Positions 9,319 to 53,790 are shown, counted from the whole stretch's first letter. The stretch: DNA of 54,571 nucleotides, filler included, from Stramenopiles sp. TOSAG23-3 (GCA_900128585.1; 4 parts of 4 records of this genome joined end to end with filler, not necessarily neighbours in it), one strand, 5' to 3'. Translations and numbers: made by a program. The notes: generated by a model not told the origin, from the letters alone.

Positions 9319-9388
9319 AAACAAGAAAATTGGCTGTTATTTAAGTTAATTAAACTTAATGTACTGCGAACTGAAATCTAGATTTAGA
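9319..9388 (+). repeat. 3'-intergenic repeat family: core motif plus partial module B
   Basis: aaacaagaaaattggctgttatttaagttaattaaacttaatgtactgcgaactgaaatctagatttaga is near-identical to the copies at 12940-13027 and 45732-45818. Confidence 0.9.
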
Positions 9389-9478
9389 TTTAATCTAATA
9401 TTAAGTTTTTAGTACTGCATACGATGCTTAATACGAAGCGCGCTTTGTTTCATAATAATTATACTCGCGGGAGTTATA

Positions 9479-9531
9479 AAAAGAAAAAAGAAGGTGTCAG
9501 TTCAAGAACAAGCTCCCCAAGTTCTGGTCAA
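9479..9531 (+). repeat. 3'-intergenic repeat family: module C, first part
   Basis: aagaaggtgtcagttcaagaacaa matches 15341-15364. ctccccaagttctggtcaa (9513-9531) is the reverse complement of 41829-41847. Confidence 0.85.
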
Positions 9532-9776
9532 CTCTTTTTTTTTTAAAAACATATTTATATTAGTATGCTTTAAGACTCTCACTTTATACTTTTTATCAAT
9601 CATTCTTATATATATATGGTCTTAGTTCTGTATGGATTTTTGTACGTACATCTAGTATCTAGGTTGTCGACACCCCCTGTTTACGAGTTTTGCGTTAACT
9701 CTCGGACGAAAAAATGTGACGGAAGCTGATCTCGTTTCGAGGAACCCCTCGCTTTGCTCCACACTCCACACCCTAC

Positions 9777-10448
9777 TTACATGAAACGCAAATACAAGAC
9801 TAAAACAATAAAGAGGCAGCATGCGCCTGCCGCCATATACTTTTGAACAAGCTTCCAAAAGTTCAGCATTTTTGCATTCTTCTCAAATGCCTTTGATTTC
9901 CTCAACAAATCCCTGGAACCGGAGCCCACCTGTTCGAGCCTTTCCCCTCGACTGAGCACTTCTTCAATATTCATGCGCATAATGTTGGTAATGTCTGCTA
10001 GCTCTGAGTTTAAACGTTGCATGTTCTTGCTACTATTGGGGTTTTGATAATCTCTTCGTTTACGCTGAATGATCTTATCAAACTTTATAAAAGCGTACGG
10101 GTGGCTTACCGTGTCCACGGTGGACCTATAGTCTGGTCCGTGGTCCGCTCTCAACTCTTCAACGAACGCTCGCTTTATGTCTTCTAAAAAGCCGAACGAC
10201 AAGCGTTTGTCGTATCCTCTTTCACATAGCGTCATGTAACACACGCCGTCATCAATTATATAATGAAAGGTATAATCCCCCGATTCGAAACTACACTTTT
10301 TTGGAGACCGAGCGTTCAGCTTACCAAGTATCATCTTTGCTTGCTGTTTATAGGAGTCGAAGTTCTGCCCAGGCGCCCCCGCAACCTCCATACTCGCTGT
10401 CAGCAGAAGCCCATCGCTGGACCGTGCAACAAAAGTTAATATCGGCAT
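9777..10448 (-). CDS. SEC22: Longin R-SNARE Sec22
   Basis: N-terminal ARSSDGLLLTAS longin domain, PYAFIKFD, SNARE motif NIEEVLSRGERLE and a C-terminal TM helix. Confidence 0.93.
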   Translation of the reverse strand: MPILTFVARSSDGLLLTASMEVAGAPGQNFDSYKQQAKMILGKLNARSPKKCSFESGDYTFHYIIDDGVCYMTLCERGYDKRLSFGFLEDIKRAFVEELRADHGPDYRSTVDTVSHPYAFIKFDKIIQRKRRDYQNPNSSKNMQRLNSELADITNIMRMNIEEVLSRGERLEQVGSGSRDLLRKSKAFEKNAKMLNFWKLVQKYMAAGACCLFIVLVLYLRFM

Positions 10449-11269
10449 CGGTTCAGTTCGGTTTACTTTTTTCTAGAAAAACAAATGTTACATCGAACGC
10501 ACGAATAAATACGAAATGGAAATCACGCAAATCTACCTTTCTAAGTACGTTTGAATCTATACAATAGAGAAGACAGAGAGAGAAGAAGAAAACGAAACCA
10601 CTACTTTTTTAAAATTGTATTATTATATTTTTTTATTAAAATTATTATTTTTTTTATTATTAATTATAATATTATAATTATTTAGATTATTTTATAGTAG
10701 TCCTAATAAATAATAATTTTAAATATTAATAAATGTGATGATGATGAGAATTGTGATCATCATCAACAAAAAAACATTTAAAAAGTAAATAATAGAAGAG
10801 AAAGAGTCCGTCTTCTCTCTTCTTCTTCTATCTTCTTTTATTTCTTCTTTCTTCTCTTATTTCTTCTTCTTCTTTTGTTTCTTCTTCTTTCTTTTTTTTT
10901 TCTAGGATTAGTCTTCTCTAATGAGCTATTAGTCATATTTCATTTTTTGAATATTTATAAGTAAATAGCATTGAGAAATGATTAAAAGAATGCTCTATTT
11001 ATTGTAACCTTTTTCTCTGAAGATCCAGTCATGTATTATACCGGAACCACCGATAGTACATGCATGTTATATGAGGTATCATCATAAAATTACAAGAAGA
11101 ATGTAAAAAATTCTTTATCAAAGTACTTTTGTATGCTTCACTCAAATGATATTTAAATTGTTAGGTAATATATACAATAATTAGACACAAGTCTGATTTT
11201 GATCAAACGAATATTGCGCCGTTGTTTGGAAAGTCGTGCAAGCGTTTTCCATTAGTCTGTGCTGTTTCC

Positions 11270-12932
11270 ATGTCGGGCTTAAAAGGGACATATGGGGTTG
11301 GGTATGGGGGTGTAGACTTGGAAATGGTGCCTAATAAAGAGGAACGCATGTTTGTAATTGAATGTGGTAATGATGGAGCTTCTACCGTTGTGGCCAAAGC
11401 TCAGTCTAGGAAAAAATCAGTACGAGCGTTTGTAATAGAGTGCGAGAATGATGGAAGTTCTACCATAGTCGTGGGTAGCCCCGAAACTAAAAATGAGGAG
11501 AACGAAGAGGACGAAAATGATGAGAACGAGGAGATTACTTTGAATGCAATTCGGCAGCAAATGAAGGAACTCATTGAAAAACAGGAGAACAATATCAAGA
11601 CAATACACGAACTAGAGCAAGCCGTCAAGGTTCAGAATCAATGCAAGAGCGCCTCCACCATTTTGTTGAGGACGCAGACTTTCTTGTTGTAAAAGACGCG
11701 CCGCCAACCCTTGCAGGCGCATGCTTTTCGCTGTTGGTTCCTGTAATGTTGATTATTCTGGGAATCAATAAATGGGAAGAGTTTAACCAGCCCAACGTAT
11801 TGTTTCCATCCACGACATATTTTACACCAAGTTCGAGAAAGGCGTATCCCACGTCATTCAGATGTGTCCCGAGGGGGATGGACATTGGTTCGTTTGAAGG
11901 GGGTGGTTCTATGGAAGACATCGTTCGGGGTTCTGCCTGCGACGCGATGGACAAATCGTGCACCACTGCGTCCGATTGCTGTGACGCGCCAGGTTGGAAA
12001 TGTGATCCTTTTGGAAAGTGCAAGCGAGGGGGGTACCAAATCAAAGGCTCACTGTTTGGTCCTTGCAAAATCGATGAAGACAGTGGACTGTGAGCGATCG
12101 GTGCGCTTCAAAAATATGGGCAGTCGATGGGGAAGTCGTTTCGTGCGCAAATGGAGAACTGCCTAAGACGGGCAGTGGTAGCATGTTGATGGACGTAGGG
12201 GGTGGAAACGATACCATCTGTCTACCTTTGTGTTCCGACGAAGACTCGTCGTTGCTACTGTTCGGGTACAACAATTTGGCAACAAAATTCATCATCATAA
12301 ACGAGCTGAGGTGGGCCAACGGCCGAGGCCTGGAAGCCCTAGGACTACCCGAAAAAAATTCCACCGTGAGCAAGTTTAGCAGCAAATGCAAGATTCCCTA
12401 CGACCCAGATGAAGGCAACTGTTTTGGTTGGCCGCACCCCGTTCAATCGGACGAGACCATGGCGTCTGTCTTTGCTGTGGGAGCGAATGAGCTGTTCCCC
12501 GCAGCTACCTCTAGCAAAGTTACTGGGGCCAAGTACGAAATCTCAAGGTTCAACCTGACGTATGTTTCACCGACCTGGCCGGGCAAGAAAGTTCTGGTCA
12601 TGACTGAGGGATTCTCCCAAATTGTTCACTACGGATCTGTTGCATCGTCAATCTCCTACTCGTCTGAATCGTCGTGGGGAACAGACTTTCCGGAAACGGG
12701 CTACTTCATTGAAATTAAGAGCAGTCCAATGCACCATCATTTGGTTTCAATCTACCAAAATCCTGTCTTGGCAATTTTGGGGGCGATTGGCGGATACTTC
12801 TCGCTGCTGATGGCTTTGTTTGGTTATTTTAAGAAGTTTTCGCTGAAGGCAGGTCTGAAATGGGGCGTGCACTGTTGCCTTACAAAGACAGGGACGCATG
12901 TGGGAACTGAGTACAAAGTAAAACGACAATAA
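11270..12932 (+). pseudogene. Probable single gene for a two-TM membrane protein with a Cys-rich loop, split into three overlapping ORFs by two -1 frameshifts
   Basis: ORFs 11222/11270-11692, 11641-12093 and 12090-12932 overlap in successive -1 frames. TM1 is PPTLAGACFSLLVPVMLIILGI and TM2 is AILGAIGGYFSLLMALFGYF. No GT-AG intron explains the shifts. Confidence 0.55.
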
Positions 12933-12939
12933 ATTTTAA

Positions 12940-13027
12940 AAAACAAGAAAATTGGCTGTTATTTTAAGTAATTAAAATTAATGTACTGCGAACTGAAATC
13001 TAGATTTAGACATTCTAGGTTTGCATT
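12940..13027 (+). repeat. 3'-intergenic repeat family: core motif plus full module B
   Basis: Matches 45732-45818 except for one substitution and one indel; starts 8 bp after the stop at 12932. Confidence 0.92.
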
Positions 13028-13593
13028 CCATAGGAAAAGAAAAAGGAAAAAAGTACATATATTCCTAGACTACCTCGTACATATTGTTCATCAAACCTCT
13101 ACTGGAATAACTCAAAACCCCGAGAACGTTGTCAATCAATCAAAAAAACCCACACCTATATATATTCGTATTCTAACACTATTATATAAATACAATTTAT
13201 TAGTTACTAAATTCATTCCGTATTGCAATGTAGTAAAAGAACGCCCCGCCATCCGCCACCGCGGTGCTGTACGGCTGTGATAAAAAAAATTGTGATGACC
13301 CACCACCACGGACCACGGCCGGCCCAGGGACCCAGGGACCAGGCAGCAGGGTCTTCTCTGCTGAGATTTTATTAATATTTGTACATTCTTCTTTCTACAC
13401 GTACATCGATGTTGGATGTGTTAATTTGATGTATGTAAGTTATATATCTATTGATGATTACAAACTGAAAGTGAAAAGTAATATCTAGTTCGTGGGAAGG
13501 TGGAACCAAAGAAATATACGTTTTAATCGATTTTGTGCAATCCGTCCTGTTTCTTTTGTGTTGCATAGAGTGAGGAATTAATAACAAATAAAG

Positions 13594-15132
13594 ATGGCTG
13601 CACTGTCAGACTTTGAGAAAATGCGCATGGCGCTTATCCAGAACATTGCTTCTGCGTCTACGCCAGAAAAGGTTGCTGCGCTTTTGGCGAAATTTAATAG
13701 TCCAGAAGCCGAGGCTGCTGCCGAGGAAACGAAAGAGAAAGAAGAAGAGCCGCCTGCGCCGAAAGAATCAGAGTTCGTAGTGAATGCTAGAAAGGCGCTT
13801 CGCAAGGTAGGCCCTGCAAATTTTTTCAAGTTCGGGCAACTGTTGGCTGGAAGCGATGGTGAAAACACTGGTACCGTCAGCGTCGAAAGTTTGGAGGGGG
13901 CGTTCGCGGGCGTTCTGGGCAGCGCGGGGGATCTATCCGACGAAGTTTTTGATGGTTTAAAGAACGAGTTTATTGACCCGAGCGGTGGCGGTGGAGTGGC
14001 GCATGGCGCTCTTTACGAGGCCCTTTTGGGCGGGGCGCTGGAAGGGTCCCGGAAGAACATGTCCGACTCTGCGTTTCAGTCGTTTGAGAGGGTTGGTGCC
14101 GACCAAAAGTGCATTTCTCTTGCGTCTTTGCTCGAGACATTTTCACCAAAGAACCACCCCGACGTAAAAGCGGGTACTGTCACTGCAGATCAGATTGCAG
14201 TGGAATTTTGGCAAATGTTTCGCTGCACAGACGGCGAGGGAAGGGTGTCCACGGACGACTGGGAACGGTACAGTCGCGTCCAAAGCGCTATGCACGACGA
14301 CGACGAAACGTTCCAACTGTTCCTTCGTAGAGTTTGGAAAATGAGTGGAAACTTTCTGCTGTACGATTACATCCAAACGTCGCCGTCAAAACAGCCAACC
14401 GTTAGAGAGACGGGCAAGAAAATGATACAACACAGGCACGACGAACTGTACCGTGGCCAGGTGTCGGTCACGACCCCGGAGAGTGTCGTAGTGAAACACC
14501 ACGGGAAAAAAGCAGGGAAGCACATGGAATCGCACATGAGTGGTGCCAGCGCCATGTCTACAGCAGATGAGCCAAAGCGGGGCAAGAAAGCCCATCGGTA
14601 TGACAATGTTTCGCAGCTTGAAGGGATGACACCTAAGAAAGAAGTGGAGTACCGTCGCAGCAAAAAGATAAGCGAACGTTCGCCAATCGACACCCTTTCT
14701 GGCTCTGGGGTGGATCCAGGGCAACTTTCAGTAAAACCTAGTCTGCGTCTGATAGAAAAACAAGATCATTTTCACTCCGATACCGTCGGGGTTGCCCATA
14801 CAAAGGACCCTGTGCGAGGGCTGAAGCACAACGACGAAATCCATGCTGATCATTTTGAAAACGGTATTGCGCAGGACGAACAACCTTCCCCCCGTGGCTT
14901 AAAGCGCATTGTTGTCGAAGGTCATATGGAAAATACTGGAGTATCCTCAGCAAAGTTAGAAACCCTCCGGGAGCGCACGAGTAAAAGCATTGTCAGTCAT
15001 GATCCCTACTATTGGAACGAAAAACAATCTGTGAAAAACAGACATTCGAAAGATGAAGAACCGAAATACCGTGGTAAGTCGATTAGAAAAGGTGTTACTC
15101 CCGGCGGGAACAGCCAAATTGTATTCGGGTGA
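13594..15132 (+). CDS. Calcyphosin-like (degenerate EF-hand) protein with a repetitive C-terminal half and terminal PGG motif
   Basis: HPDVKAGTVTADQIAVEFWQMF...DDDETFQLFLRRVWKM resembles the calcyphosin C-terminus; the protein ends TPGGNSQIVFG. Confidence 0.7.
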   Translation: MAALSDFEKMRMALIQNIASASTPEKVAALLAKFNSPEAEAAAEETKEKEEEPPAPKESEFVVNARKALRKVGPANFFKFGQLLAGSDGENTGTVSVESLEGAFAGVLGSAGDLSDEVFDGLKNEFIDPSGGGGVAHGALYEALLGGALEGSRKNMSDSAFQSFERVGADQKCISLASLLETFSPKNHPDVKAGTVTADQIAVEFWQMFRCTDGEGRVSTDDWERYSRVQSAMHDDDETFQLFLRRVWKMSGNFLLYDYIQTSPSKQPTVRETGKKMIQHRHDELYRGQVSVTTPESVVVKHHGKKAGKHMESHMSGASAMSTADEPKRGKKAHRYDNVSQLEGMTPKKEVEYRRSKKISERSPIDTLSGSGVDPGQLSVKPSLRLIEKQDHFHSDTVGVAHTKDPVRGLKHNDEIHADHFENGIAQDEQPSPRGLKRIVVEGHMENTGVSSAKLETLRERTSKSIVSHDPYYWNEKQSVKNRHSKDEEPKYRGKSIRKGVTPGGNSQIVFG

Positions 15133-15242
15133 TGAAACGTGGCGCTCTTTCATTAATGGAAGTGTACTCCATAATTAAATTAAAAACAAAAAACTGGAAG
15201 TTAATTCAGCCATGTCATATTAATAAAATATTATTCTAATAA

Positions 15243-15528
15243 AAACAAAAAAATTGGCTGTTATTAAAGTATAATATTAAGACAAGAAAAACAAGAAAAA
15301 TTGGCTGTTATTTTTTATAGTAATTAAAATTAAAGAAAAAAAGAAGGTGTCAGTTCAAGAACAATNNNNNNNNNNNNNNNNTTGGTCTTAAAAGTACACA
15401 GCGGCATAAATGTTTTAAAGGGGCTCGTTGTCTGTGGTACTGCTCAATGAAATAATGATCCGGTATTGAGTTTGATCGTTTCGTGGTCGTATACACATAT
15501 GATATGATACAAGAAAATTGGCTGTTAT
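15243..15528 (+). repeat. 3'-intergenic repeat family: three core motifs plus module C, interrupted by a 16-N gap
   Basis: Core copies at 15243-15264, 15289-15311 and 15509-15528. 15382-15460 is the reverse complement of 41738-41816 (78/79 nt). Confidence 0.9.
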
Positions 15529-23778: not shown

Positions 23779-23826
23779 ATATTCAAAAAAAAAAAAACAT
23801 CATCAGAGCATACAAGTGATACTAAT
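23730..23826 (+). repeat. 31-bp direct repeat of the recombinase ORF 3' end, separated by an A13 run
   Basis: aacatcatcagagcatacaagtgata(g/c)taat at 23730-23760 and 23796-23826. Confidence 0.9.
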
Positions 23827-25164: not shown

Positions 25165-25264
25165 NNNNNNNNNNNNNNNNNNNNNNNNNNNNNNNNNNNN
25201 NNNNNNNNTTAATTAATTAANNNNNNNNNNNNNNNNNNNNNNNNNNNNNNNNNNNNNNNNNNNN
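25165..25264. other. Assembly gap with artificial TTAATTAATTAA linker (also at 50285-50384 and 52429-52528)
   Basis: An identical N44-TTAATTAATTAA-N44 structure occurs three times; the 12-mer has stops in all six frames. Confidence 0.95.
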
Positions 25265-25266
25265 AG

Positions 25267-31482: not shown

Positions 31483-31677
31483 GAACAACACGAAAAACGT
31501 TTTTAAATCTGATTGATTTTTAGTGTACAAAAAAAATATAAGTTTTTATAATAATATATCATACGACACACTTTGTAAAACCGCATATAATAAAAGAGTT
31601 TTATTCTTACAAAAATACGAGCAGAAAGAAAATTTACTCTTGTGTGAATCGTATCCTAGACAATACGAATTGTAAAA

Positions 31678-33834: not shown

Positions 33835-34810
33835 GGTGCGCAGCAGTGCTAGTCTCACAATAAACTTAGTAACTAAACTTTTCAATTGCAGCAAGAAGGC
33901 AAAACATGTACGACAATGCGCATAAACTAAAAACCTTGATTGGTCACTTAAATACCCATTACTTTTCTTTCTTTGTCGTTGTGAACATTTTTGATTGAAC
34001 CCATGTGCTTCAGATTCCTAACTTGGTGTGACAAATCATCATCAACGGCCGTCAACAAAGGGCGAGCACCGAGCACCACATACTACATGATTACAGCAGC
34101 AGGCTCAGGCAAAATATCAAGCAATTTCCTCATCTTCTTCATCTTCGCAAATTTGACTTATTATTTACATGTTAATAAATAAAATGTATAAACCTACTTA
34201 ACATTTTAAATGTAGAATGATGAATATAATAGAAAGAAAAAAATTATAATATCTACAATCTATTATGTGGTGATTTATTTTAATCTATTTAATCAATATC
34301 CTCTTCGGATATTCGGATCTTCCAAATAGTATTATTAAGTATTATTAATACATGTATGAATGGTTAATTTCATTTATATTGAACAGCACAGGAAATTGAA
34401 GTAAACATTATTAAAACAATACCTATATATTAATATTAAGTTAAGTATATTAATATATATTGTTGAATTTCTTTCTTTTTGGGTCAAGTCATTTTTGGTT
34501 GGTGGAATTGATGAAATTCACCCAAATGAAAAGGAAATATTAATAAATAATAGAAAAGAGCAAATCCCTATAGAAACAGAGTATTCTAAATTGCTAACAT
34601 TTATCAACTGCTAGGCAATGTCTTTTTGCGCTGTGGGATTCACGATTCACGATGATTTATTACGCCAACCCATCTCTATCGGATCTTGCGATGTTAGTCT
34701 ATATAATGTTTCCTTTCCACCGTGTAGTTATATTATTATAGTCGCTTCTCTTTTTATCTTAGTAGTCCTCTACGGCGATGGAGTTTATGAGAAGTTGAAG
34801 AAGATGATGT

Positions 34811-35011
34811 TCTTTCTTCTTCTTTCTTCTTCTTCTTCTTATTTTTTTCTTCTTTTTTTTTCTTCTTCTTCTTCTTTCTTTCTTCTTCTTCCTTCTTCTT
34901 CTTCTTCTTCTTCTTCTTCTTCTTCTTCTTCTATATTCTTCTTTCTTCTTCTTCTTCTTCTTCTTCTTCTTTCTTCTTCTTCTTCTTCTTTCTTCTTCTT
35001 CTTCTTTTTGT
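34811..35011. repeat. Imperfect (TTC)n microsatellite in the divergent intergenic region
   Basis: About 200 bp of near-continuous ttc repeats; a similar tract lies at about 10811-10900. Confidence 0.95.
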
Positions 35012-35412
35012 TGTTGTTGTCAGTTTTCCGTGTTCTCTTCATCTCTTCTTCGTGCAATGGTGAAAATATCATGCTCCCTCACTCCTCCCTCAGCAGTGTT
35101 TCTATTTTTATGCTGTGGTCTTTGTATTATCTAGTCATACATTATTATCTAATCGCGTCAGGCACAGGAGGTGGTAGTGGAGGAGAAGAAGGCACCACCG
35201 GCGGCCACACAGAACAACTTCTCAACTCCTACTAACTAATTTCTTGCTTCGTCGCATTTGGTGGGATTCTGTAACGATTGTAAACCCGGTAAAATTGTGG
35301 AGGAACAATAACTTCTTGAGCAATATAAGTTTGGCGAGATCAGTGTATAATTACGCAGTGGCATTAGAGAACAAGAAAACAACAGACAAAATTTCTTACG
35401 AACGTTTCTCTC

Positions 35413-41646: not shown

Positions 41647-41698
41647 GTACACCCAAGAGATGTTGTTCACTCCTCTGCCTAAATTATTATTTTTATTA

Positions 41699-41872
41699 AA
41701 AAACAAAAAATTGGCTATTATGTAAGTAATTAAAACCGATCATTATTTCATTGAGCAGTACCACAGACAACGAGCCCCTTTAAAACATTTATGCCGCTTT
41801 GTACTTTTAAGACCAATCAATTGGAATCTTGACCAGAACTTGGGGAGATATAACAGCCAATTTTCTTGTTTT
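41699..41872. repeat. MITE-like unit: module C flanked by inverted copies of the core motif
   Basis: aaacaaaaaattggctattat (41701-21, +) and ataacagccaattttcttgttt (41850-71, -) enclose 41738-41847, which matches 15382-15460 and 9513-9531 in reverse. Confidence 0.65.
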
Positions 41873-42080
41873 AAAATTAAAATTTAGCTTTCTCAGTGTA
41901 CCGCGAAATGAATCTGCTCCTTTTGCCTATCCACTAAAGGCTTACGTTCCTTCATGCAGCGAACTGTGCGAACTTTAATCTCGAAAGTATTATTTTTAAT
42001 TTTTTCACAAATATTTGTGAATAACTAAAATTAAATTTAGTTAATAATAATCAATATTATGATATGACTGGGAATAATTG

Positions 42081-42412
42081 GCCAATTTCTTGTTTTTAAT
42101 CAATATATAACAGCCAATTTTCTTGTTTTTAATCAATATGGTATTTTTAATTTTATTTCTGCTCATCATCCTCTTCAAACAAAACGACTTTCTCTACCTC
42201 AGCAAAATAGCCCCTTCGTCTTGTAAACAACGAATCAAAATTACAAACCCACAAGTTAGGATTATGGTATGAGGAAGCTAAATTTAATTACTTAAATAAA
42301 TAACAGCCAATTTTCTTGCTTTTTAATCAATATGGTATTTTTAATTTTATTTCTGCTCATCCTCTTCAAAACGACTTTCTCTACCTCAGCAAAATAGCCC
42401 CCTCGTCTTGTA
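42081..42412 (-). repeat. Direct duplication of the channel gene 3' end including the core motif
   Basis: 42108-42225 is nearly identical to 42301-42412 (last ~10 codons, stop and 3' flank); a third partial copy lies at 42081-42106. Confidence 0.92.
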
Positions 42413-45290
42413 GATCCCATCGTTGGCCACATGTACCGCAAGTGACACCTACCCACTCTCCTGCTTCTGCACAATATGGGCAGTCAAATTTATCTTTTCC
42501 AGGGTGTTTGTCATGCACCCAACCCGACTTCACAGCCATCAACTTGAGCCAAGCGGATAAGTCCTCGCTTTGTTTCATACTGAACCAGTTCGATGATAGA
42601 GCTGTCGACAGGACCATTCTTACGGCATTCACGTCTTGATCGTGCCGTTTCCAAGCTGCATAACACGAGCGGAGTAAATTCCAGAGTCTCTCTCTATTAA
42701 CATTTTCTGGCTTTTTCCCGTACGAAAACACAAGCATCTGCGTTATTTCTAACGGGCTGTTAATCGAATACCTGTAGTCTTTTGACAGGACCACAAGTGC
42801 CGAGTGGTTTTTAAGTTTAGAGGGAGCACTAGCCCTGTCCATCTCCTCTCGCTGTACACACTTCGGGCAAGAGTAATGCTCACACTCAGTTTGCAAATGT
42901 TTGTCCATATCCGTGTAAGGAACAACTTTATTACAATATGTACAGCGAGACAGCCACGATTTAAATGTGCACTTAATTTCGTGATTTCCAACCAAACTCT
43001 GTTCTCCTGTCCACGAACAACCATGGACATGAAATCGGCAGCGTACTCGGACGCTCCCCCACATTTTCCATACAATTTTGTTGTTCGTTTCGACGTCCTG
43101 CAACTCTTCTGTTTTAAGCGGTTCTCCAGTAACAGGGCATAGCGGGGCCCTTTCAAGTGCGTCAGAGATACACGACGCGCAAAACAGGTGACCTGTTGGT
43201 GACTGTGTAGGTTTTCGGGATAATCCCCTGCAGATAGGGCACCGCAACTGGGGTGGCAATAAATCTGGCTGCAAGATGAGCGCGTCCCTCTGGTTTAAAT
43301 CATCACCACTTGCATTCAATGCGACTTGGGCCAAGCTGTTCACATTATTGGTACGGAGAACAATGTTGGTCTGTCCCCTTCCACCCGCTGCAGCAATTCC
43401 CCCGTCCCCTTCTAAACCATCAAATATTTCAGGGGGCTTTTCGCTGGCCCGTTTTCCATACTTGAGTTTCTTCTTTCCCTTCATTGACCCTTCAGGTAAC
43501 ATCAATGGAACTGCATTGGTTGAACTATTCCCGTACGTGTTCCCAAAATTGTCATCGTCGGATTCAGAGCCACTACTGGCATTTTCTTCGCTGTCGTCGG
43601 AGTTATAGTTGTTAACGTTCGTGTTTTGGGTATTTCGACTCTTTTCGCTGACACCAGCAGCAGCTCTCAGTTCTTGGGGCGTAATACTGGATAAAAATGC
43701 TATAATATTCCGTTTGAAAGCGTACTTCATCACATGCCGTCGCACGCATTTATAGATATGAGGGAAATTTCCAAGTTCAAGAACATCATCTAAATCGCTC
43801 TTTGACAAAACATACACATCCAAAAACGTTAAAGACCTGACATCATGCAAGCGCACTGCACTCTGAAGAATCATGTCTTCTCCAAAATAGTTTCCACCCC
43901 CCATTATTCTGCCATTGCAACCAACGACCCCTTTCCGAATAATGTACATTACCAACCCCCGTTCTCCCTTGGATATGACCAACTCTTCGGGGGCAAACGA
44001 GTCAATCGTCAGCTTCATAGTGACTTCGGTAATAAATGATTTCAGCTCTGCGTCTGTAGCAGCTTTTGGGTAAAAAAATGGAACCCGTTTCACCCAGTCT
44101 GCGTTGGACAAAACCGCAACTTCTCCTCTCAGGGTGGGCGTCATCAAGGACAGCAAGTCATTGTAATGGTGTGCTCTTTGAAGCTCCCGCGTATGATAGA
44201 AGTATTCGCGCAATCTATATCTGAGCTCCTTTGGAATTCGATTTTCTTTCATATAATCCTGTAGCGCATCCATCCGCTGCTGAAATTGGGCAGTCGCTGC
44301 ATCCATCGTGGCAACAATTCCACATACTGCCCCAACTATGTAGGCGTAGATGAACCCACCGCACGCCATTGCCACCATACCGACGCCCTTTTCTCCCTCT
44401 GTCGTCAGCTCAATGTCACCATATCCTATCGTTGTAATCGTCATTAATGCCCAGTAAACCCCGATCAGGTATTGTCCCCATTCGCCAGATTCATAAACGT
44501 TGTTTGACACTAGATAATTGATAGGAAACCCTTTCTCGTCAAACGCCAACTCTAACTCCACTATCAATCGCAACAAACACGCAAGCCAATGGGTCGTCGT
44601 AAGAACAACAATCACAAATTTAATTAAACTTTGCACCGCATAAGAGAGGGCAATCTTTGTTTCCCATCGTTTGAAAAGACGGGACGCGCGGAGCACCCGC
44701 GCTAATTTTATTAATCTGAACAACCGAATCACTCTTAAAACTTTTAAATCCTGAAGCGTGTCAGCAACGCTCTCGCCTCCCGTTGCCGACGGGGGAAGAG
44801 CAACAAACATGTCGAACGGAATTGTACTAACAACGTCTATTAAAAACCACCCTTTCACGTAACGAATGGCAATACGATCGTGTGACACTACCCATAAACC
44901 CTCGTCTTCTAATTCATATGCCAAGCAGAAGTTTATGATTATGTCTGCAAAGAATGCCATGTCTACAAGGCGGTTTAACATAAACAAAAGCGGGGGGACT
45001 GAAGCGCTCAAGTACGAAACCTCAAACGGCGTGACCACAGCAGTGTAAAGTAGCAGCAATATCATTAAAAGGTCCCACTGTTGCGAAAACTTGCTTTTCG
45101 GAGATATTATGCATTTTATATTGTCCGGGTTACTAACCCCCCGGTGTTGATGTATTTGTACTTGTTTGAATGTCGCTTCTTGCACTGCTGTGAACATGTC
45201 GGTCTTTAATGATGCCATATGTCTTTCTGGGCCAGACCCCTCATTCGATTCACTGAAAGGTAATACCGGAGTCTGCTCAACAGACGCCAT
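42381..45290 (-). CDS. Voltage-gated K+ channel of the cyclic-nucleotide-binding-domain superfamily, fused to a C-terminal RING-like domain and TRAF-type zinc fingers
   Basis: S4 LRVIRLFRLIKLARVLR, pore TITTIGYGD, C-linker, CNBD GNYFGE, then CPIC...GHLFCASC...CPV, CRFHVHGCSWTG...HEIKC and CTYC...HLQTEC. Confidence 0.9.
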   Translation of the reverse strand: MASVEQTPVLPFSESNEGSGPERHMASLKTDMFTAVQEATFKQVQIHQHRGVSNPDNIKCIISPKSKFSQQWDLLMILLLLYTAVVTPFEVSYLSASVPPLLFMLNRLVDMAFFADIIINFCLAYELEDEGLWVVSHDRIAIRYVKGWFLIDVVSTIPFDMFVALPPSATGGESVADTLQDLKVLRVIRLFRLIKLARVLRASRLFKRWETKIALSYAVQSLIKFVIVVLTTTHWLACLLRLIVELELAFDEKGFPINYLVSNNVYESGEWGQYLIGVYWALMTITTIGYGDIELTTEGEKGVGMVAMACGGFIYAYIVGAVCGIVATMDAATAQFQQRMDALQDYMKENRIPKELRYRLREYFYHTRELQRAHHYNDLLSLMTPTLRGEVAVLSNADWVKRVPFFYPKAATDAELKSFITEVTMKLTIDSFAPEELVISKGERGLVMYIIRKGVVGCNGRIMGGGNYFGEDMILQSAVRLHDVRSLTFLDVYVLSKSDLDDVLELGNFPHIYKCVRRHVMKYAFKRNIIAFLSSITPQELRAAAGVSEKSRNTQNTNVNNYNSDDSEENASSGSESDDDNFGNTYGNSSTNAVPLMLPEGSMKGKKKLKYGKRASEKPPEIFDGLEGDGGIAAAGGRGQTNIVLRTNNVNSLAQVALNASGDDLNQRDALILQPDLLPPQLRCPICRGLSRKPTQSPTGHLFCASCISDALERAPLCPVTGEPLKTEELQDVETNNKIVWKMWGSVRVRCRFHVHGCSWTGEQSLVGNHEIKCTFKSWLSRCTYCNKVVPYTDMDKHLQTECEHYSCPKCVQREEMDRASAPSKLKNHSALVVLSKDYRYSINSPLEITQMLVFSYGKKPENVNRERLWNLLRSCYAAWKRHDQDVNAVRMVLSTALSSNWFSMKQSEDLSAWLKLMAVKSGWVHDKHPGKDKFDCPYCAEAGEWVGVTCGTCGQRWDLQDEGAILLR

Positions 45291-45731
45291 GTTTCAAAGA
45301 TAAAAATAGCAGACCAAATATGAATTTTCCACGCCCTCTTTCAAGTCTAAAATGTAATGTAAACGTATAATTCTATCCGCATCACAATCGCTACCGTACA
45401 TATGTTTTGTCATGTTTGTTACAGGCATATGTTGAGTTTGCCCAAATAGCAAAAGTAGATAGAAAGGAATCTTGTCATAATAAAAAAATAAAATTTAAAA
45501 ATTCTTCTTCTTCGTACCGACCGGTAATTGTGTTGTGTACTCTACTACCGCGGCGGTTAAATATTATAATAAAAATTAATTAAAAAATATTTTTTTAGTC
45601 GTCTAATTTAACGGTAAGGTACGGAATTAATAGTCGTCTGGTCATTTCTATATTATTCTAACGTATTTGTTATTAGTTGGTAACCCTACAATAAACCCAA
45701 TCATCATCCCGCAGGACTTAGTAACTCAAAT

Positions 45732-45818
45732 AAAACAAGAAAATTGGCTGTTGTTTAAGTAATTAAAATTAATGTACTGCGAACTGAAATCTAGATTTAG
45801 ACATTCTAGGTTTGCATT
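45732..45818 (+). repeat. 3'-intergenic repeat family: core motif plus full module B, abutting the Ubl gene stop codon
   Basis: Near-identical to 12940-13027; its end overlaps the stop at 45817-45819 on the minus strand. Confidence 0.92.
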
Positions 45819-48174
45819 ATGAATCTTCCTCGTTAAATTCGTGGATAGTCTGTTGCGTTGCAGCAATACGCTGTTTTCTTTCTGAGACTTCGTCAAAATG
45901 GCGCCCTTCTTCAAAGAAAAGCATTTCTTGGCGATACCTCTGAAGAATATCGCTGTGGGTTTGCTTGACTTGCGCGAGTCGTTCGGCAGCTTCTGATGCT
46001 GTCCCGCTGTACTTTTGAAGGCCATCCAAGTCTTTCTCGACATTGTTGTTCTTAATTACCAAATCTTTCAAATGTTTGAAATGCAGGTTGTCCGTGTTTT
46101 GTCTGGTAGGGTTTATGTCAAGAATAACGTTACTCATGGTCATTTTTTTCCCGTCTGAATTTGCCAGCATACGAGTCAGCTCATCGTCAAGATAGTGAAC
46201 CTCAAGCCCTGGCGTTATTGGAACCTCCTCTTCTATATGTCCTTCTATATCGTCTTCTGGCACCGGAACTCTCAAAAGTCTAGATTCGCCCGTCTTCATC
46301 GGGGTCCCAGTGTGGTATGGATCATACACTGGCAACCATTCGTACCCATCATAATCTTCCCTGCCCACGACTCGTATATATAGTGTTTCATGCAAATCAT
46401 TCTGACTCAACTGCATCGTCATTTCACCCACAAACACGTGCTTCTCTACGCTTTCGCTCTCTGGGTAAACCTTTATTTTTCCTGTAACGGAGAAGGCTCC
46501 TTGAGAACATTTGCCTTGCCCGTTTTTGGAATACACCGCTAGTTCGCGGCCATTTCCGCGCTGGTCCTTATTGCTCCACTTTTCGTACAGATTTACTTTT
46601 ATTTCTTCAAAACCAGAGTGAACAGACTTTTCTTCTCGTTTGTCCCCTTTGTTCGATTTTAACCACGGCAGCGAAACTTGCATCGTGCCGTATAATATTC
46701 CGTTGTCGCTAATCGTCAATGTAAATCTTCCTTTGTCGTATGGCTCGGTCAGCCCCGTTTTGATAGTCCCGTCCATTGTTGGGCTTAAACTCCCATCTTT
46801 TGGTTTTCCTACCTCTCCTGAAAAAGTATATGCGTCGCCTTTTTTTACATTTATCGCATCTGTTCCCACTATCTCATGGACACGTTTGGTCCCATCTTCG
46901 GCCCAAATAAACCCAGATTCTATTTTACGGTTCCATGCATCAATCCGCTTGTCTTCGTAAACGTATTTTTGTAGAACTTTACAGTTGAGCGGGCAAATAA
47001 AATCTAAATCGTTCCTATCTTTGCTTTTTTTGTACCGGCCCACCTCTATGAACTGATTGGTCGCAAACAGCTGCCTTCCAGCAGAATCTTTCCCTTCCAG
47101 CATCTTGCGGTAAGCGATCCCCTTAGAGAAAACTTCAAAATTTTCATGCACTATATACCATCTCGCCCCTTCTTCCAGTGGTAGTTTCGGTGGGAATATC
47201 TGCACAGTAGACCCTGACGGGATGCCAAAGTCCAGCAAGGAACATTTGTCATTGTCTAAAACCTTTCTATCCCACATAAGCAGCTGCAAATCCGTGGCGA
47301 TGGATGTTTCATCACATATCATGCCTTTTAGATTCTCTATAGTACTATGAGGATCGATGGCAAACTCAATGTCGACTTGCCGCTTTTCTTGAGGCTTCGT
47401 TTTCACAAAAAGTTTCATCTTTAGTTTAAGCTCGCTTTTGTCCTGAACCCCAAAGTGGCTAAGGGGTTTAAAGTTGTCGGTCAAAAGCGTGCCATTGAAG
47501 AACAAGAGCTGCTGCCGTACTTCCACTGAGCAGTGGTCTGCAATCAGCTCCTTTATTTCCCCTAAGTTTTGAGATAACTCTATGTCAAATGAGACACTCT
47601 CTCCATCCAACATCCAAACATAGATCTCCATCTGGTCCTCAGGACGACCATTCTTACTTTTACCTTTTGCCTCATTTTCCGGCCGTCGTGGTGGTGGCAG
47701 CAGCTTAAGTTCTCCTAAAATAAGCTTCTGGGAAAATGGGTCGTGCTGTGGTATCCAGCAGTAACGATCTTCCTCGGCCACTTTCACTTCAGAGCCCCCC
47801 GGCAGCGTGTACTTCAGCACTCGAAAATACTGTACTTCCGATACGTGCATTGAGACCGCGCCGTCTTCGCCAAAAGTAGAATAATGAACTAAGGGTGCAT
47901 CATAAGAATTTGTATCTCCTTTGATCGTATCCTCTTCGACTCCCCTAACGCTCCTCCTGTCCACCGTGAGCAAAGAACCTATAGGTATTTCAAACGCGTC
48001 GACTATTGGAGCATCAGGCCGAAAGACAATAGATTCGTGCAGCTTTATTTCACGGTCAGACACCTTCATCCGAAATATAAGCTTTACCTTTCTTTCCTTA
48101 TCTGCTAATACTCGAAACTCCCGAAGAAATTTCCTCTCGCCCATCCGTTTTTCTGTTTGATGCTGAAACATCAT
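45817..48174 (-). CDS. Protein with two tandem ubiquitin-like domains, otherwise uncharacterised
   Basis: MEIYVWMLDGESVSFDIE...IKELIA...QQLLFFNGTLL...LSHFGVQDKSELKL and MKLFVKT...TIENLKGMI...QLLMWDRKVL...LLDFGIPSGSTVQI. Confidence 0.75.
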   Translation of the reverse strand: MMFQHQTEKRMGERKFLREFRVLADKERKVKLIFRMKVSDREIKLHESIVFRPDAPIVDAFEIPIGSLLTVDRRSVRGVEEDTIKGDTNSYDAPLVHYSTFGEDGAVSMHVSEVQYFRVLKYTLPGGSEVKVAEEDRYCWIPQHDPFSQKLILGELKLLPPPRRPENEAKGKSKNGRPEDQMEIYVWMLDGESVSFDIELSQNLGEIKELIADHCSVEVRQQLLFFNGTLLTDNFKPLSHFGVQDKSELKLKMKLFVKTKPQEKRQVDIEFAIDPHSTIENLKGMICDETSIATDLQLLMWDRKVLDNDKCSLLDFGIPSGSTVQIFPPKLPLEEGARWYIVHENFEVFSKGIAYRKMLEGKDSAGRQLFATNQFIEVGRYKKSKDRNDLDFICPLNCKVLQKYVYEDKRIDAWNRKIESGFIWAEDGTKRVHEIVGTDAINVKKGDAYTFSGEVGKPKDGSLSPTMDGTIKTGLTEPYDKGRFTLTISDNGILYGTMQVSLPWLKSNKGDKREEKSVHSGFEEIKVNLYEKWSNKDQRGNGRELAVYSKNGQGKCSQGAFSVTGKIKVYPESESVEKHVFVGEMTMQLSQNDLHETLYIRVVGREDYDGYEWLPVYDPYHTGTPMKTGESRLLRVPVPEDDIEGHIEEEVPITPGLEVHYLDDELTRMLANSDGKKMTMSNVILDINPTRQNTDNLHFKHLKDLVIKNNNVEKDLDGLQKYSGTASEAAERLAQVKQTHSDILQRYRQEMLFFEEGRHFDEVSERKQRIAATQQTIHEFNEEDS

Positions 48175-50284: not shown

Positions 50285-50386
50285 NNNNNNNNNNNNNNNN
50301 NNNNNNNNNNNNNNNNNNNNNNNNNNNNTTAATTAATTAANNNNNNNNNNNNNNNNNNNNNNNNNNNNNNNNNNNNNNNNNNNNTC

Positions 50387-51244: not shown

Positions 51245-51460
51245 TAAGATAAGTTTTAAATTTACTCAATTTAGTACGGAGAAAGATAATAAAAACCATT
51301 GTAAAAGCGAAAGTATTCGCGCCACAGGGGGAACTAATAAAAAAACGATTTTTTTAAATAAGATGTACGAGATTTACTTTCGTTTCGTGATTTGTTGTAT
51401 CAATATTAAGCGTACCTTAGCGTTTAAGCAAAATGTGCTAAAATTCTTTTAAAATATTAA

Positions 51461-51482
51461 ATAATAGCCAATTTTCTTGTTT
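51461..51482 (-). repeat. 3'-intergenic core motif
   Basis: ataatagccaattttcttgttt, 25 bp after the stop of the minus-strand gene at 51507. Confidence 0.85.
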
Positions 51483-51506
51483 TTAAAAATACAATTTTTT
51501 TAAACG

Positions 51507-52427
51507 TTAACAGTTGTGCTTTCTTTTTATGTGACTTGAAAACTCTAGCTCAACCGCATTCTGTGGAACCCTAGCCTTCCGCCGCTTTTCCAAAAAGTAA
51601 ACGACCGGGCAAGTGACACAAAAGACGCTCATGCACCAGCTGGCAATGGCGCCGGAGGCGACGCCTCCTGGCATAAAAAAGCTGGCAAGAATTGCGTACA
51701 ACGATGCGCTCAGCATACCCAGGACCATGGGTGCCAACGTGCTCAGCGCAACCTCTTTCGATTCCGAAAGCCACAGCGAACTGACCACCACGGTGCCGAT
51801 TATCGGCAAATTGACCAAAATCCCGCTCAACGCCGGCAGCGTTTGCGCCAGCGCAAGCGCAACAAAGAAGAGGACAAACGTGCACGCCCCACGCCCCATG
51901 AATGCCCAAACCTTGCTACGAATATCGTCCTTCTCCCCGCCATCTTCCCCCGTCGTCTCCGCCTCCGTAGACGGGGCAGACGGGAAATAAACAATAAGGA
52001 GGACCCCGACCAAAAATTCAGCAAAAAACGAGGCAACCGCTAGAATTTGCAGCGTGGCCAGTGGCAACGTTTCCGGCTTTAAAAAAAACACCACGAGGGC
52101 TAAGATAACGAGAAAAACCGTCCCGGAACAGAAGAACGCCCGAAGCATGCGCCCCATCTCGCTGCTCTTCCCACCAAAACCGGCTCCGTAGTGCAGGCTA
52201 AACACACGAAGCCCTGCAAGGTAAAAGCTGTTGTTTAACATTCCAATAGGCATTACCAACATGGCCGTCTGAAACGACAAAGAAGTCGCCGAAAGCTGCA
52301 ACGAAAACCCGATCGATCCAACGACCGCAACGTGCGGCACAGTCCCCAACGCCCCCCCAACAACACCCCCACATAAATGAACCAGAAGGGAGACGGTTAT
52401 CGTAACGCACGCTGCCACCAAAGACGA
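51507..52427 (-). CDS. Uncharacterised polytopic membrane protein with two similar halves; 5'-truncated by a gap
   Basis: About 9-10 hydrophobic helices; GGALGTVP and SGILVNLP motifs recur in the two halves; the frame is open to the gap. Confidence 0.7.
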   Translation of the reverse strand, partial: SSLVAACVTITVSLLVHLCGGVVGGALGTVPHVAVVGSIGFSLQLSATSLSFQTAMLVMPIGMLNNSFYLAGLRVFSLHYGAGFGGKSSEMGRMLRAFFCSGTVFLVILALVVFFLKPETLPLATLQILAVASFFAEFLVGVLLIVYFPSAPSTEAETTGEDGGEKDDIRSKVWAFMGRGACTFVLFFVALALAQTLPALSGILVNLPIIGTVVVSSLWLSESKEVALSTLAPMVLGMLSASLYAILASFFMPGGVASGAIASWCMSVFCVTCPVVYFLEKRRKARVPQNAVELEFSSHIKRKHNC

Positions 52428-52529
52428 CNNNNNNNNNNNNNNNNNNNNNNNNNNNNNNNNNNNNNNNNNNNNTTAATTAATTAANNNNNNNNNNNNNNNN
52501 NNNNNNNNNNNNNNNNNNNNNNNNNNNNG

Positions 52530-53687
52530 GGGGGGGGGGGGAAGATCGGCATTCGCCTCGGGAGCGACCCGCAGCTTCCGGGGGCCGCGATCGTGATCGC
52601 GTTTACGAAGGGGCCGGGCGGAGAAGTGCTCCAGGCGGAAGAAAACGGGAGCATTCACCTGGGGGACATCCTTTTGGAAATCAACAGCCGCCGGATAGTC
52701 AACCTGCCGCTGCAGAAGGTCATGCAGATATTTCAGCAGGCCGAGCGCCCGATCACCCTGGTCCTGATGGCAAAGTCCAGGAGGAAGGTCTCCGGGGCCG
52801 GGTCGAAGCACGCAATCGTGGACATAGTGTTTGCGCCCGGGCCGATAGGCCTCGAGTTGACGTCCCGGGAAACGAACGGGAAAATCTCTAAGGGGGCCAT
52901 GATACGCTCGTTCAAGAACATGAAAGACGGCACCCCCGGGGCCGCCGAGCGGTGCGGCAAGCTTCAAGCGTCCATGATTCTGCACGCGTGCAACGATGAG
53001 GTAATCCATGGCTACCCCTTTGAGGACATTATGAAGTGCCTCCGGCAAGCGTCCCGCCCGATGGTCCTTCGGTTCCTCCACGACCCGGACATCAGCCTCT
53101 CGTTTCGCGAGTCCGGCCCGATTGGGCTGCGGCTGGGAAAGTTCAACGATTTCGTCGTCGTGACAGGCTTCGTGAAAATTCGTGGCCCGGGCGAGTCCAC
53201 CGGCGTCATAAAAACGGGGCACATCGTGCACATGCTCGGGGGGCAGCCCTGCACCGTCACCGCGGGGGCGAAACGGGACTGGACGTACTCTGAGATATTG
53301 AACGGGCTACGGCGGCTGCCACGACCGGTGGTCGTTCGTTTTGGGCCGAACATTCAAGATGTTTTCGCCGATGACACCGATGAAGCTGAAGAGGGGGCAT
53401 CCCTGAAGTGGTGCGACGTGACCTTTGGGCCAGGGGCGATGGGCATCACCTTTAAGAAAAACAAGGACGGTCGCACCGTAGTTACGGGGTTTCCTAAGTT
53501 GGAAAGTCCAGCGCAGAAGCGAGGTGACATTATCCGCCACGGTATGGTACTGTTGAAGTTAAATGGGGAGCAGTTGGGAAATTTGAGCCTTGAGGAAGTG
53601 ATTGGCCGGCTGAGAACGTCCCCGCCACCCCGCACCTTGGTGTTTCGAGACCAAGAGCTGTACAGTCGAATCCATAAAGAACGGTGA
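52530..53687 (+). CDS. Multi-PDZ-like domain protein (at least 4 units); 5'-truncated by a gap
   Basis: Repeated G(P/A)(I/M)G(L/I)...G(D/M)(I/V)L...N...RP..L.F units; the frame is open back to the gap (GKIGIRLG). Confidence 0.8.
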   Translation, partial: GGGGKIGIRLGSDPQLPGAAIVIAFTKGPGGEVLQAEENGSIHLGDILLEINSRRIVNLPLQKVMQIFQQAERPITLVLMAKSRRKVSGAGSKHAIVDIVFAPGPIGLELTSRETNGKISKGAMIRSFKNMKDGTPGAAERCGKLQASMILHACNDEVIHGYPFEDIMKCLRQASRPMVLRFLHDPDISLSFRESGPIGLRLGKFNDFVVVTGFVKIRGPGESTGVIKTGHIVHMLGGQPCTVTAGAKRDWTYSEILNGLRRLPRPVVVRFGPNIQDVFADDTDEAEEGASLKWCDVTFGPGAMGITFKKNKDGRTVVTGFPKLESPAQKRGDIIRHGMVLLKLNGEQLGNLSLEEVIGRLRTSPPPRTLVFRDQELYSRIHKER

Positions 53688-53734
53688 AACAATACTGTGT
53701 GTGAGAGAGTATTTTTTAAATATTAATCATAAAT

Positions 53735-53790
53735 CAAAAATTGGCTGTTGTTTAAAGTATCTCAATTAAAATTTATCTTCCTCGTGTACC
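53735..53790 (+). repeat. 3'-intergenic core motif plus a module B-related segment
   Basis: caaaaattggctgttgttt; aattaaaatttatcttcctcgtgtacc resembles 41875-41902. Confidence 0.75.

Follow-up and report, generated by a model that had tools for sequence, protein, structure and literature searches.

The usual description of small, gene-dense protist genomes is that they contain almost no repeats. In bacteria, REP/BIME sequences are extragenic words of 20-40 nt that number in the hundreds to thousands; they typically follow genes or separate convergent ones, in either orientation, and many form clusters. REPs are imperfect palindromes mobilised by a dedicated transposase. Some MITEs supply poly(A) signals in 3' flanks, and Helitrons have 5' TC and 3' CTRR ends with a subterminal hairpin. 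Published abstracts place MITEs next to genes. The introner elements of Micromonas, as far as they are described in the consulted part of PMC4815162, are present in thousands of copies in introns, are spliced and mostly follow the orientation of the gene. In Blastocystis, the consulted part of PMC4159000 reports an 8-nt motif, TGTTTGTT, lying exactly 4 nt past the poly(A) site of about 96% of 2,419 genes, in the sense orientation only.

The window, the whole stretch of 54,571 nucleotides analysed here, carries a 22-nt motif at a density of 13 copies per 54.6 kb, or about one per 4 kb. The 22-mer has an A-rich start followed by a GU/U-rich stretch, and its outer end is a run of 3-6 A. Its reverse strand has a CCAAT pentamer, for which a CCAAT box or an NFI half-site was considered by eye. 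Allowing at most one mismatch, nine copies were found (9319, 12941, 15243, 15507 and 45733 on the plus strand; 41850, 42107, 42300 and 51461 on the minus strand), compared to none in 100 dinucleotide-preserving shuffles and a chance expectation of 0. A search with up to six substitutions added 15290 (with one extra A), 41700 and 53730 on the plus strand and 42074 on the minus strand; a further match at 20718 is at chance level and was not counted. A profile built from 166 metagenome copies only, with the window's own copies left out, re-found the same copies, 12 at E ≤ 6e-4 and one (42081-42099) at E 0.98, and the remaining 10 window rows had E ≥ 6. This profile revealed no decayed relics outside 3' flanks in the window, where the motif is either well kept or missing. 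The roughly 13 copies of the first-pass annotation thus all exist, at positions differing by 0-7 nt (15289 is found at 15290, 15509 at 15507, 41701 at 41700, 42081 at 42074 and 53735 at 53730). The copies are collected in Table 1.

Table 1. Motif copies, their repeat bodies and one local duplication in the window.
Feature	Position	Strand	Remarks
Exact motif (9319-9340) with family-A body	9319..9388	+	116 nt past carbamoyl-phosphate synthase stop
Exact motif (12941-12962) with family-A body	12936..13029	+	94 nt common to other loci; motif in tandem spacer, sense, 8 nt past stop of ORF 12078-12932
Motif, 1 mismatch	15243..15264	+	110 nt past stop of ORF 13585-15132
Motif with one extra A (15290-15311) heading family-B body	15287..15499	+	Approximate search, alignment, profile; N run at 15366-15381 interrupts body, which ends early at ~15499
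Motif, 1 mismatch; third in direct cluster	15507..15528	+	Mismatch search, profile
Degenerate motif with AT-rich follow-on	41700..41734	+	53 nt past myosin stop; 17 bits
Exact motif (41850-41871) with family-B body	41732..41871	-	Body adjoins directly; internally deleted, truncated; 98% to L025 over 116 nt
Degenerate motif	42074..42095	-	Profile E 0.98; 33-nt local tandem unit with copy 42107
Exact motif	42107..42128	-	Mismatch search, profile
Motif, 1 mismatch (42300-42321), with AT-rich follow-on	42285..42325	-	59 nt past channel/RING ORF stop
Motif, 1 mismatch (45733-45754), with family-A body	45729..45818	+	Antisense to both neighbouring genes; similarity to other copies stops at 45818, two bases into stop codon (45817-45819) of ubiquitin-like ORF
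Motif, 1 mismatch (51461-51482)	51447..51486	-	24 nt past stop of ORF 51507-52472
Degenerate motif, 3' half kept	53730..53766	+	42 nt past PDZ ORF stop; 16 bits
Local tandem duplication of ~190 nt between motif copies	42126..42412		Repeats last bases of channel ORF and its 3' flank

A metagenome scan for the exact 22-mer yielded at least 132 stretches from at least 12 assembly series. The context statistics below were drawn from such loci among the matches listed, each chosen by the exact 22-mer, so that conservation inside the motif is given by construction and the context alone is informative. Because many loci are only 622 nt long, 70 of the 176 copies outside ORFs, among the matches listed, have no called ORF on either side. 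None of the listed loci overlaps the window's genes. Two look-alike locus pairs considered as orthologues proved not to be homologous, and near-identical pairs (99.4-99.96%) showed one 6-nt indel at the motif edge and no filled/empty site. Viral contigs gave no motif match, and literature searches with parts of the motif returned primer-like chance matches only. In the consulted passages of genome papers, PMC3491373 among them, no such motif is mentioned.

Judged from the aligned sequences, the 22-nt motif is the sharp 5' edge of longer repeats and not a free-standing signal. Two families with different bodies share the same tip of 22-40 nt. Family A spans about 86-94 nt, a length shared by three window copies, and family B at least 290 nt, its copies being 96-99% alike at unrelated loci. 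Compared to locus L025, family-B copies at unrelated loci showed identities of 96.7% over 334 nt, 96.6% over 267 nt, 98.9% over 177 nt and 98.3% over 116 nt. Identity this high over non-coding DNA points to recent copying rather than to a conserved signal. The family-A core follows 25 of 180 copies, and words of this family are present in 29 of 132 loci (both among the matches listed). Over the 150 copies with full flanks, from loci chosen by the exact 22-mer, base agreement is 0.95-1.0 at the motif, 0.5-0.85 over the next ~20 nt on its 3' side and at background by about +45. The repeats multiply as units of ~22 to more than 290 nt with a sharp start at the motif. Some copies lack their distal part or an internal stretch, and others are nested, inverted or duplicated in place. 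In the window these variants include the internal deletion at 41850, truncations at 15499 and 41735, and local duplications of 33 and ~190 nt. At L025 a motif is nested within a family-A copy and surrounded by a 6-nt flank repeat, and copy 42107 is flanked by an 11-nt repeat; local duplication is a possible source of both, and the far end is undefined in most copies. No clear target-site duplication or poly(A) tail was seen at the repeat copies and no empty site among the loci compared, so that mobility is deduced from copy structure only.

Adjacent motif pairs among the matches listed comprise 44 direct, 18 facing and 11 back-to-back arrangements, spaced 3-1128 nt apart with no mode, and paired inverted ends at a fixed distance were not found among them; the window copies are mostly solo. 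No transposase, integrase or reverse transcriptase was found in the 184 distinct ORFs adjoining copies, and one of these ORFs has an endonuclease/exonuclease/phosphatase domain without reverse transcriptase (among the matches listed). A structured non-coding RNA gene was rejected, as neither family folds better than its shuffles (z -0.87 and +1.15), no Rfam family matches at gathering score and no tRNA was found. A Helitron was also rejected, since on inspection neither strand of the consensus shows its ends and there is no stable hairpin. Summed depth, which does not equal copy number, is 20,000-138,000 at repeat positions in the DNA run X3 compared to 3-26 for single-copy contigs. By the same rough measure, the RNA run X15 has 422-631 at the repeat positions and about 1-39 at genes, where X3 has 3-26, and RNA libraries may contain DNA.

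The placement of the copies is strict. In the window, seven ORFs are followed by a sense copy, at 8, 24, 42, 53, 59, 110 and 116 nt from the stop, in line with the 10-120 bp that the first-pass annotation had given for seven genes, and the copy at 45733, described there as antisense to a ubiquitin-like gene, is indeed antisense at 62 nt from the stop of that ORF. Two of the gene names fared less well: no Pfam family was found for the 'calcyphosin-like' ORF (13585-15132) or the 'membrane protein' (51507-52472), nor for ORF 12078-12932. By ORF coordinates, the convergent spacers of the window (~2.7 kb) hold 11 copies, the tandem spacers (~3.2 kb) two and the divergent spacers (~4.9 kb) none; coding and divergent-promoter DNA is free of copies. 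Of the copies with genes called on both sides, among the matches listed, 54 fall within convergent spacers, 20 within tandem and 1 within divergent ones, and 19 of the 20 in tandem spacers lie in the stop-proximal half (p 4e-5). Unbiased spacers hold a copy in 0 of 11 divergent cases compared to 10 of 19 convergent or tandem ones. Four copies 'inside' ORFs of 126-157 aa (622-nt loci L090, L102 and L121) were set aside, as these ORFs have no Pfam family, lie in repeat DNA and were taken as spurious. The restriction to 3' flanks, strongly confirmed here, exceeds what simple tolerance would predict and would also fit a selected function; a role in termination is possible.

Orientation leans to sense without being fixed, a bias that would likewise fit a selected function. 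Among the matches listed, 51 copies are sense and 24 antisense within 150 nt of a stop (p 0.002), 23 and 7 within 75 nt (p 0.005), and 12 and 3 in family A (p 0.035). In convergent spacers 36 copies are nearer the gene to which they are sense compared to 18 that are not (p 0.02), and tandem spacers hold 9 sense and 11 antisense copies, again among the matches listed. The distance from stop to copy varies from 8 to more than 500 nt.

We consider it probable, on balance, that the motif is the conserved end of a non-autonomous dispersed repeat family that lodges in gene 3' flanks. The tip would be the part required in cis for copying, and hence better kept than the rest, whether the copying route is DNA transposition, retroposition or recombination. 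Copies would be retained almost exclusively in the 50-250 nt that directly follow stops, mostly between convergent genes, either because insertion targets 3' flanks or because only there does an insert cause no harm in a compact genome. The moderate sense bias near stops may come from selection on the effect of the element on the upstream transcript, a sense copy being, for example, neutral or helpful as a read-through stop. Of the two readings offered by the first-pass annotation, the terminus of a mobile family thus fits best, given the longer families and near-identical copies, and a general 3'-end or RNA-binding element is weakened.

The latter reading, a lineage-specific cis element that directs mRNA 3'-end formation or terminates RNA polymerase II and is held by selection, is possible but doubtful. 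With its A-rich start and GU/U-rich stretch it could work like a poly(A) site and its downstream element, or it could be factor-bound DNA that blocks the polymerase between closely packed and often convergent genes, the longer repeats being secondary. The strict position behind stops, the sense bias near them, and a 22-mer that is better conserved than its AT-rich neighbour and is either well kept or absent all argue for such a signal, and Blastocystis already provides an example of a downstream poly(A) motif particular to one lineage, as reported in the consulted part of PMC4159000. In addition, a PAS-like hexamer overlaps the motif start and lies within 60 nt upstream of 46% of copies compared to 16-25% of controls. 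However, 15 of 43 AATAAA hits begin within the last 6 nt before the motif, and there is no positioned upstream hexamer. Of 17 window gene ends, only 8 carry a copy within 120 nt, seven of them sense and one antisense, and 8 of the 9 ends lacking one share no substitute word by eye. In RNA contigs, two convergent genes that lack the motif terminate 19 nt from each other. Furthermore, one in three near-stop copies and 11 of the 20 in tandem spacers are antisense (among the matches listed), the distance to the stop is variable, and hundreds of near-identical bases travel with the motif. Myosin RNA contigs (X15, X17) end at 41664, which is 18 nt beyond the stop codon and 36 nt short of the copy. 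These ends were not taken as evidence for a poly(A) site, as no DNA run covers the position and the loose ends listed are 24 of 190. Short metagenome contigs ending near a copy showed no poly(A) or poly(T) ends.

The mobile-repeat and terminator readings may also combine, in a repeat that carries a terminator. A self-spreading terminator cassette, that is, a mobile element whose 22-nt tip itself ends transcripts and which is kept or recruited behind genes of a streamlined genome, is a more tentative option still. If it were true, close-packed and convergent genes would be kept from reading into each other, and a transposable element would be the source of a large share of the gene 3' ends of this protist.

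A DNA site bound for reasons unconnected with transcript ends, for instance by a chromatin-boundary, cohesin-loading or replication-origin factor favouring 3' spacers, is improbable. Both orientations, homotypic clusters with irregular spacing (the 44 direct neighbours among the matches listed), the preference for convergent spacers and the CCAAT pentamer on the reverse strand would suit it, and budding-yeast replication origins favour convergent spacers. However, the sense bias near stops would be unexpected and the long near-identical bodies unexplained, and known origin densities, far below one per ~4 kb, count against an origin. Even less credible is an mRNA 3'-UTR element, for example a site targeted by an abundant 22-nt small RNA or a stability or localisation signal in mature transcripts: the motif has the length of a small RNA, is biased to sense and is crossed by some RNA-library contigs that carry 100-255 nt of other sequence on both sides, but a third of the near-stop copies are antisense (among the matches listed) and the repeat depth is low in X15 relative to X3 by the rough measure above. 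A technical artefact (adapter, amplification chimera or assembly linker), which the first-pass annotation had named as a possible refutation and which the three artificial N44-linker-N44 gaps of the window might suggest, can be dismissed with near certainty, as exact copies, with ordinary genes on their flanks, lie within contigs as long as 36 kb that come from at least 12 assembly series, the region is present in 20 public runs of 17 studies, 6 of them RNA, and the copies differ by point changes within a consistent gene context.

Genes near copies encode, among others, axonemal dynein heavy chain, ODAD1, CFAP298 and a MyTH4 myosin, and none of the 184 adjoining ORFs (among the matches listed) was recognised as a photosynthesis gene. 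On these grounds a small green alga, which genome size and G+C had suggested, was dropped as host; the host is probably a heterotrophic flagellate, an intron-poor marine protist with a compact genome. If the repeat family is merely tolerated, it shows where such compact genomes still absorb mobile DNA and offers a sharp marker for recruiting host contigs from marine metagenomes. If the motif ends transcripts, a mobile element would provide terminators genome-wide. The host turns up in many public marine metagenomes and metatranscriptomes, so that the 3'-end data needed for a decision are probably available already.

Similar to TGTTTGTT of Blastocystis, as reported in the consulted part of PMC4159000, the present motif is a lineage-specific, well-conserved GU-rich word behind gene ends in a compact protist genome. 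It differs in its 22-nt length, its occurrence at 8 of 17 gene ends (with a limit of 120 nt), its variable distance, its two orientations and its embedding in longer repeats, and it thus shows neither the presence at nearly all gene ends nor the sense-only orientation of a general poly(A) signal. Like the introner elements, as far as the consulted part of PMC4815162 describes them, it belongs to a short repeat family of thousands of copies, largely in gene orientation and restricted to a single type of non-coding DNA, in a small eukaryote of the sea; unlike them, it lies behind stop codons in an intron-poor genome. With REP/BIME it has in common extragenic words of 20-40 nt, numbering hundreds to thousands, behind genes and between convergent ones, in both orientations and clustered, but it is not palindromic, shows no fold and is eukaryotic. 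Features shared with the gene-associated MITEs of plants and other eukaryotes are the small size, the non-coding and AT-rich sequence, the very high copy number, the position near genes, the sub-families with common termini and the deleted or nested copies. The differences from MITEs are the lack of terminal inverted repeat pairs bounding an element of characteristic, fixed length, the single conserved end and the far stricter 3'-side restriction, and no clear target-site duplication was seen. Read on the opposite strand, the repeats resemble non-LTR retroposon families (SINE/LINE pairs) with a common 3' tail, in that different bodies share one terminal tail of 22-40 nt and the opposite end is cut back by differing amounts, in some copies until the tail alone is left. 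Unlike the tails of such pairs, however, the tail on that strand ends in a short T run where poly(A) or a simple repeat would be expected. Moreover, the 184 neighbouring ORFs (among the matches listed) yielded no partner with reverse transcriptase, and one copy is internally deleted rather than truncated.

The recurrence of the 22-nt motif in the window is real. Allowing at most one mismatch, we found nine matches, and 100 dinucleotide-preserving shuffles gave none. With up to six substitutions, four further degenerate copies were recognized, in agreement with the roughly 13 copies counted in the first-pass annotation; the row at 20718 at this threshold is at chance level. A profile built from metagenome copies only recovered the same 13 copies and nothing else of note, with E values of at most 6e-4 for 12 copies, 0.98 for one, and at least 6 for the remaining ten rows. 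Sense copies lie 8-116 nt past the stop in seven window ORFs, matching the 10-120 bp claimed earlier, and the copy at 45733 is indeed antisense, 62 nt from the stop of the ubiquitin-like ORF. By ORF-coordinate arithmetic, 11 copies fall in convergent spacers (about 2.7 kb), two in tandem spacers (about 3.2 kb) and none in divergent spacers (about 4.9 kb), bearing out the reported absence from divergent-promoter DNA. Overall, there is one copy for every 4.2 kb.

The window is eukaryotic DNA with few introns and with long open frames, among whose products are carbamoyl-phosphate synthase, PDS5, a teneurin-EGF protein, a NIPA transporter, a MyTH4 myosin, a cyclic-nucleotide-gated channel with a RING finger, a ubiquitin-like protein, an ABC ATPase and a PDZ protein. 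The channel ORF has an unusual domain combination, and a trio of plus-strand ORFs may be one gene with small introns or frameshifts. At least two of the three gap fillers are spanned by continuing ORFs, so that they look like within-gene scaffold joins and not arbitrary concatenation.

Coordinates of motif copies, repeats and other features of the window and of metagenome loci
Feature	Position	Strand	Description
Degenerate motif copies	15290, 41700, 42074, 53730		15290 with one extra A
Family A copies	9319, 12941, 45733		86-94 nt
Family B copy 1	ends early at 15499
Family B copy 2	41732-41871		motif joined straight to inner body part
Tandem duplication	42126-42225 / 42320-42412		about 190 nt, bounded by copies 42107 and 42300
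Motif-less convergent spacer	31482-31678		195 nt, holds both the teneurin-like and the NIPA end
Channel/RING ORF	42381-45293	-	voltage-gated-type ion channel, cyclic-nucleotide-binding domain and C3HC4 RING finger
ORF trio	11165-11692, 11578-12093, 12078-12932	+	abutting or overlapping, no Pfam family
Simple-sequence tracts	34795-35053, 10811-10919		long, CTT/TTC-rich, in divergent (promoter-side) spacers
Gap fillers	25165-25264, 50285-50384, 52429-52528		identical, artificial; 44 N, 12-nt all-frame stop linker, 44 N
Further N runs	3972-4062, 15366-15381
Other dispersed repeat	L002:3-711, L011:1879-2382, L058:197-916		metagenome loci; non-coding, 500-720 nt, 81-85% alike

The same placement was found in metagenome loci retrieved by the exact 22-mer, in which genes were approximated by ORFs of at least 120 aa. 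Among 180 distinct copies at no more than three mismatches, only four lie within ORFs, all short, without any Pfam family and inside repeat DNA. Where ORFs flank the copy on both sides (n=75), the spacer is convergent in 54 cases, tandem in 20 and divergent in one, and 19 of the 20 tandem copies occupy the half adjoining the stop of the upstream gene (p 4e-5). Spacers not used for retrieval contain a copy in none of six divergent, two of six tandem and one of two convergent cases. The orientation of the motif is biased but not fixed. Up to 150 nt from a stop, sense copies outnumber antisense copies by 51 to 24 (p 0.002), and up to 75 nt by 23 to 7 (p 0.005). Tandem spacers hold nine sense and 11 antisense copies. 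In a convergent spacer each copy is by geometry sense to one neighbour, so only distances are informative there; 36 copies are closer to their sense gene and 18 are not.

Alignment of 150 copies on the motif revealed a sharp 5' edge, preceded by T-A-A and a run of 3-6 A. On the 3' side an AT-rich follow-on with the consensus TTAAGTAATTAAAATTAA shows an agreement of 0.5-0.85 and reaches background by about +45. Two longer repeats carry the motif as their 5' tip. Family A consists of the motif, the follow-on, a 29-nt core and more, and its core follows 25 of the 180 copies. Family B is at least 290 nt long, and its copies in loci L091, L117, L101 and L102 are 95.7-98.9% identical to that in L025. 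The second family-B copy of the window has an internal deletion. Locus L025 contains a family-B body with a partial internal tandem repeat, and an inverted family-A copy in which a motif is nested, flanked by a 6-nt repeat. A tandem unit of 33 nt comprises copies 42074 and 42107, and the larger tandem duplication repeats the last bases of the channel/RING ORF and its 3' flank, producing a pseudo 3' end past the real stop. The likeness of family-A copy 45733 to other copies ends at 45818, two bases into the ubiquitin-like stop, and through this overlap (45815-45819) the repeat may have reshaped the end of that ORF. Neighbouring copies are direct (44), facing (18) or back-to-back (11), with spacings of 3-1128 nt and no favoured length; therefore, the motif family is not a classical inverted-repeat element. 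Families A and B fold no better than shuffled sequence, and Rfam and tRNA searches gave no matches. A further non-coding repeat of roughly 700 nt, without any ORF above 75 aa in L058, is common to three loci, indicating that the genome does carry dispersed repeats.

Repeat units thus multiply starting at the motif, and different bodies share the tip while their extent varies through deletion, nesting and local duplication; the copy number is high and the 3'-flank location strict. On balance we favour the reading that the motif forms the conserved end of a family of dispersed, non-autonomous repeats. The tip would then be required in cis for copying, and its location might arise from targeting, or from survival only behind genes. 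The first-pass annotation had offered a mobile family at gene ends as one of two options; it is the better of the two, although none of 184 distinct ORFs next to copies has a transposase, integrase or reverse transcriptase, and neither inverted ends nor a poly(A) tail, a clear target duplication or an empty site was seen for the copies.

The chief alternative is a termination or 3'-end element under selection, a serious possibility if an unlikely one. Selection would also fit the sense bias near stops and the absence of decayed relics outside 3' flanks. However, nine of the 17 window gene ends lack a copy within 120 nt, and eight of these nine have no common substitute motif by eye. The convergent teneurin-like and NIPA genes, both motif-less, have RNA-contig ends at 31553 and 31572, 19 nt apart; therefore, the motif is not required for 3'-end formation. 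A PAS-like hexamer lies upstream of 46% of copies versus 16-25% in controls. As 15 of 43 AATAAA hits begin within the last 6 nt before the motif, these hits are products of the A-run junction and not a positioned upstream element. In Blastocystis, extracts of PMC4159000 describe an 8-nt GU-rich word that follows the poly(A) site by exactly 4 nt in about 96% of 2,419 genes. In contrast, the present motif is optional, occurs in both orientations at variable distance and carries a long hitch-hiking sequence, a pattern unlike that of a core processing signal. The earlier suggestion of a general 3'-end signal is weakened accordingly, while a secondary role is possible. A mobile element carrying a terminator, which would combine both readings, is quite unlikely.

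A site bound at the DNA level by chromatin or replication factors is improbable. Some RNA contigs cross copies into unique sequence on both sides, and repeat positions have a low representation in the public RNA run X15 relative to the public DNA run X3, by a rough measure with strand unknown; a 3'-UTR element or small-RNA target is highly improbable. The chance of a technical artefact, such as the adapter or amplification chimera considered earlier, is negligible, as exact copies lie within contigs as long as 36 kb, adjoining ordinary eukaryotic genes, in at least 12 assembly series among the 80 metagenome matches listed.

The exact 22-mer occurs in at least 132 metagenome stretches, 330,740 bases in all. 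The myosin-channel region is present in 20 public runs from 17 studies, mostly marine metagenomes, six of the runs being RNA. In X3, depth is 3-26 for contigs that cover single-copy genes, and summed depth at repeat positions reaches 20,043 (41799), 63,056 (42298) and 138,291 (45780), values that are not copy numbers and serve only as agreeing with the density in the window.

Searches by motif strings and words, covering parts of the literature, including PMC3491373, PMC4815162, PMC5778133 and a 2026 bioRxiv preprint, gave no description of the motif. Gene-associated MITEs and tail-sharing retroposons come closest in their working, but the defining tests of both kinds are negative for the motif family. 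In distribution, the family is similar to bacterial REP/BIME elements. The introner elements of Micromonas, as portrayed in extracts of PMC4815162, are likewise confined to a strict class of sites.
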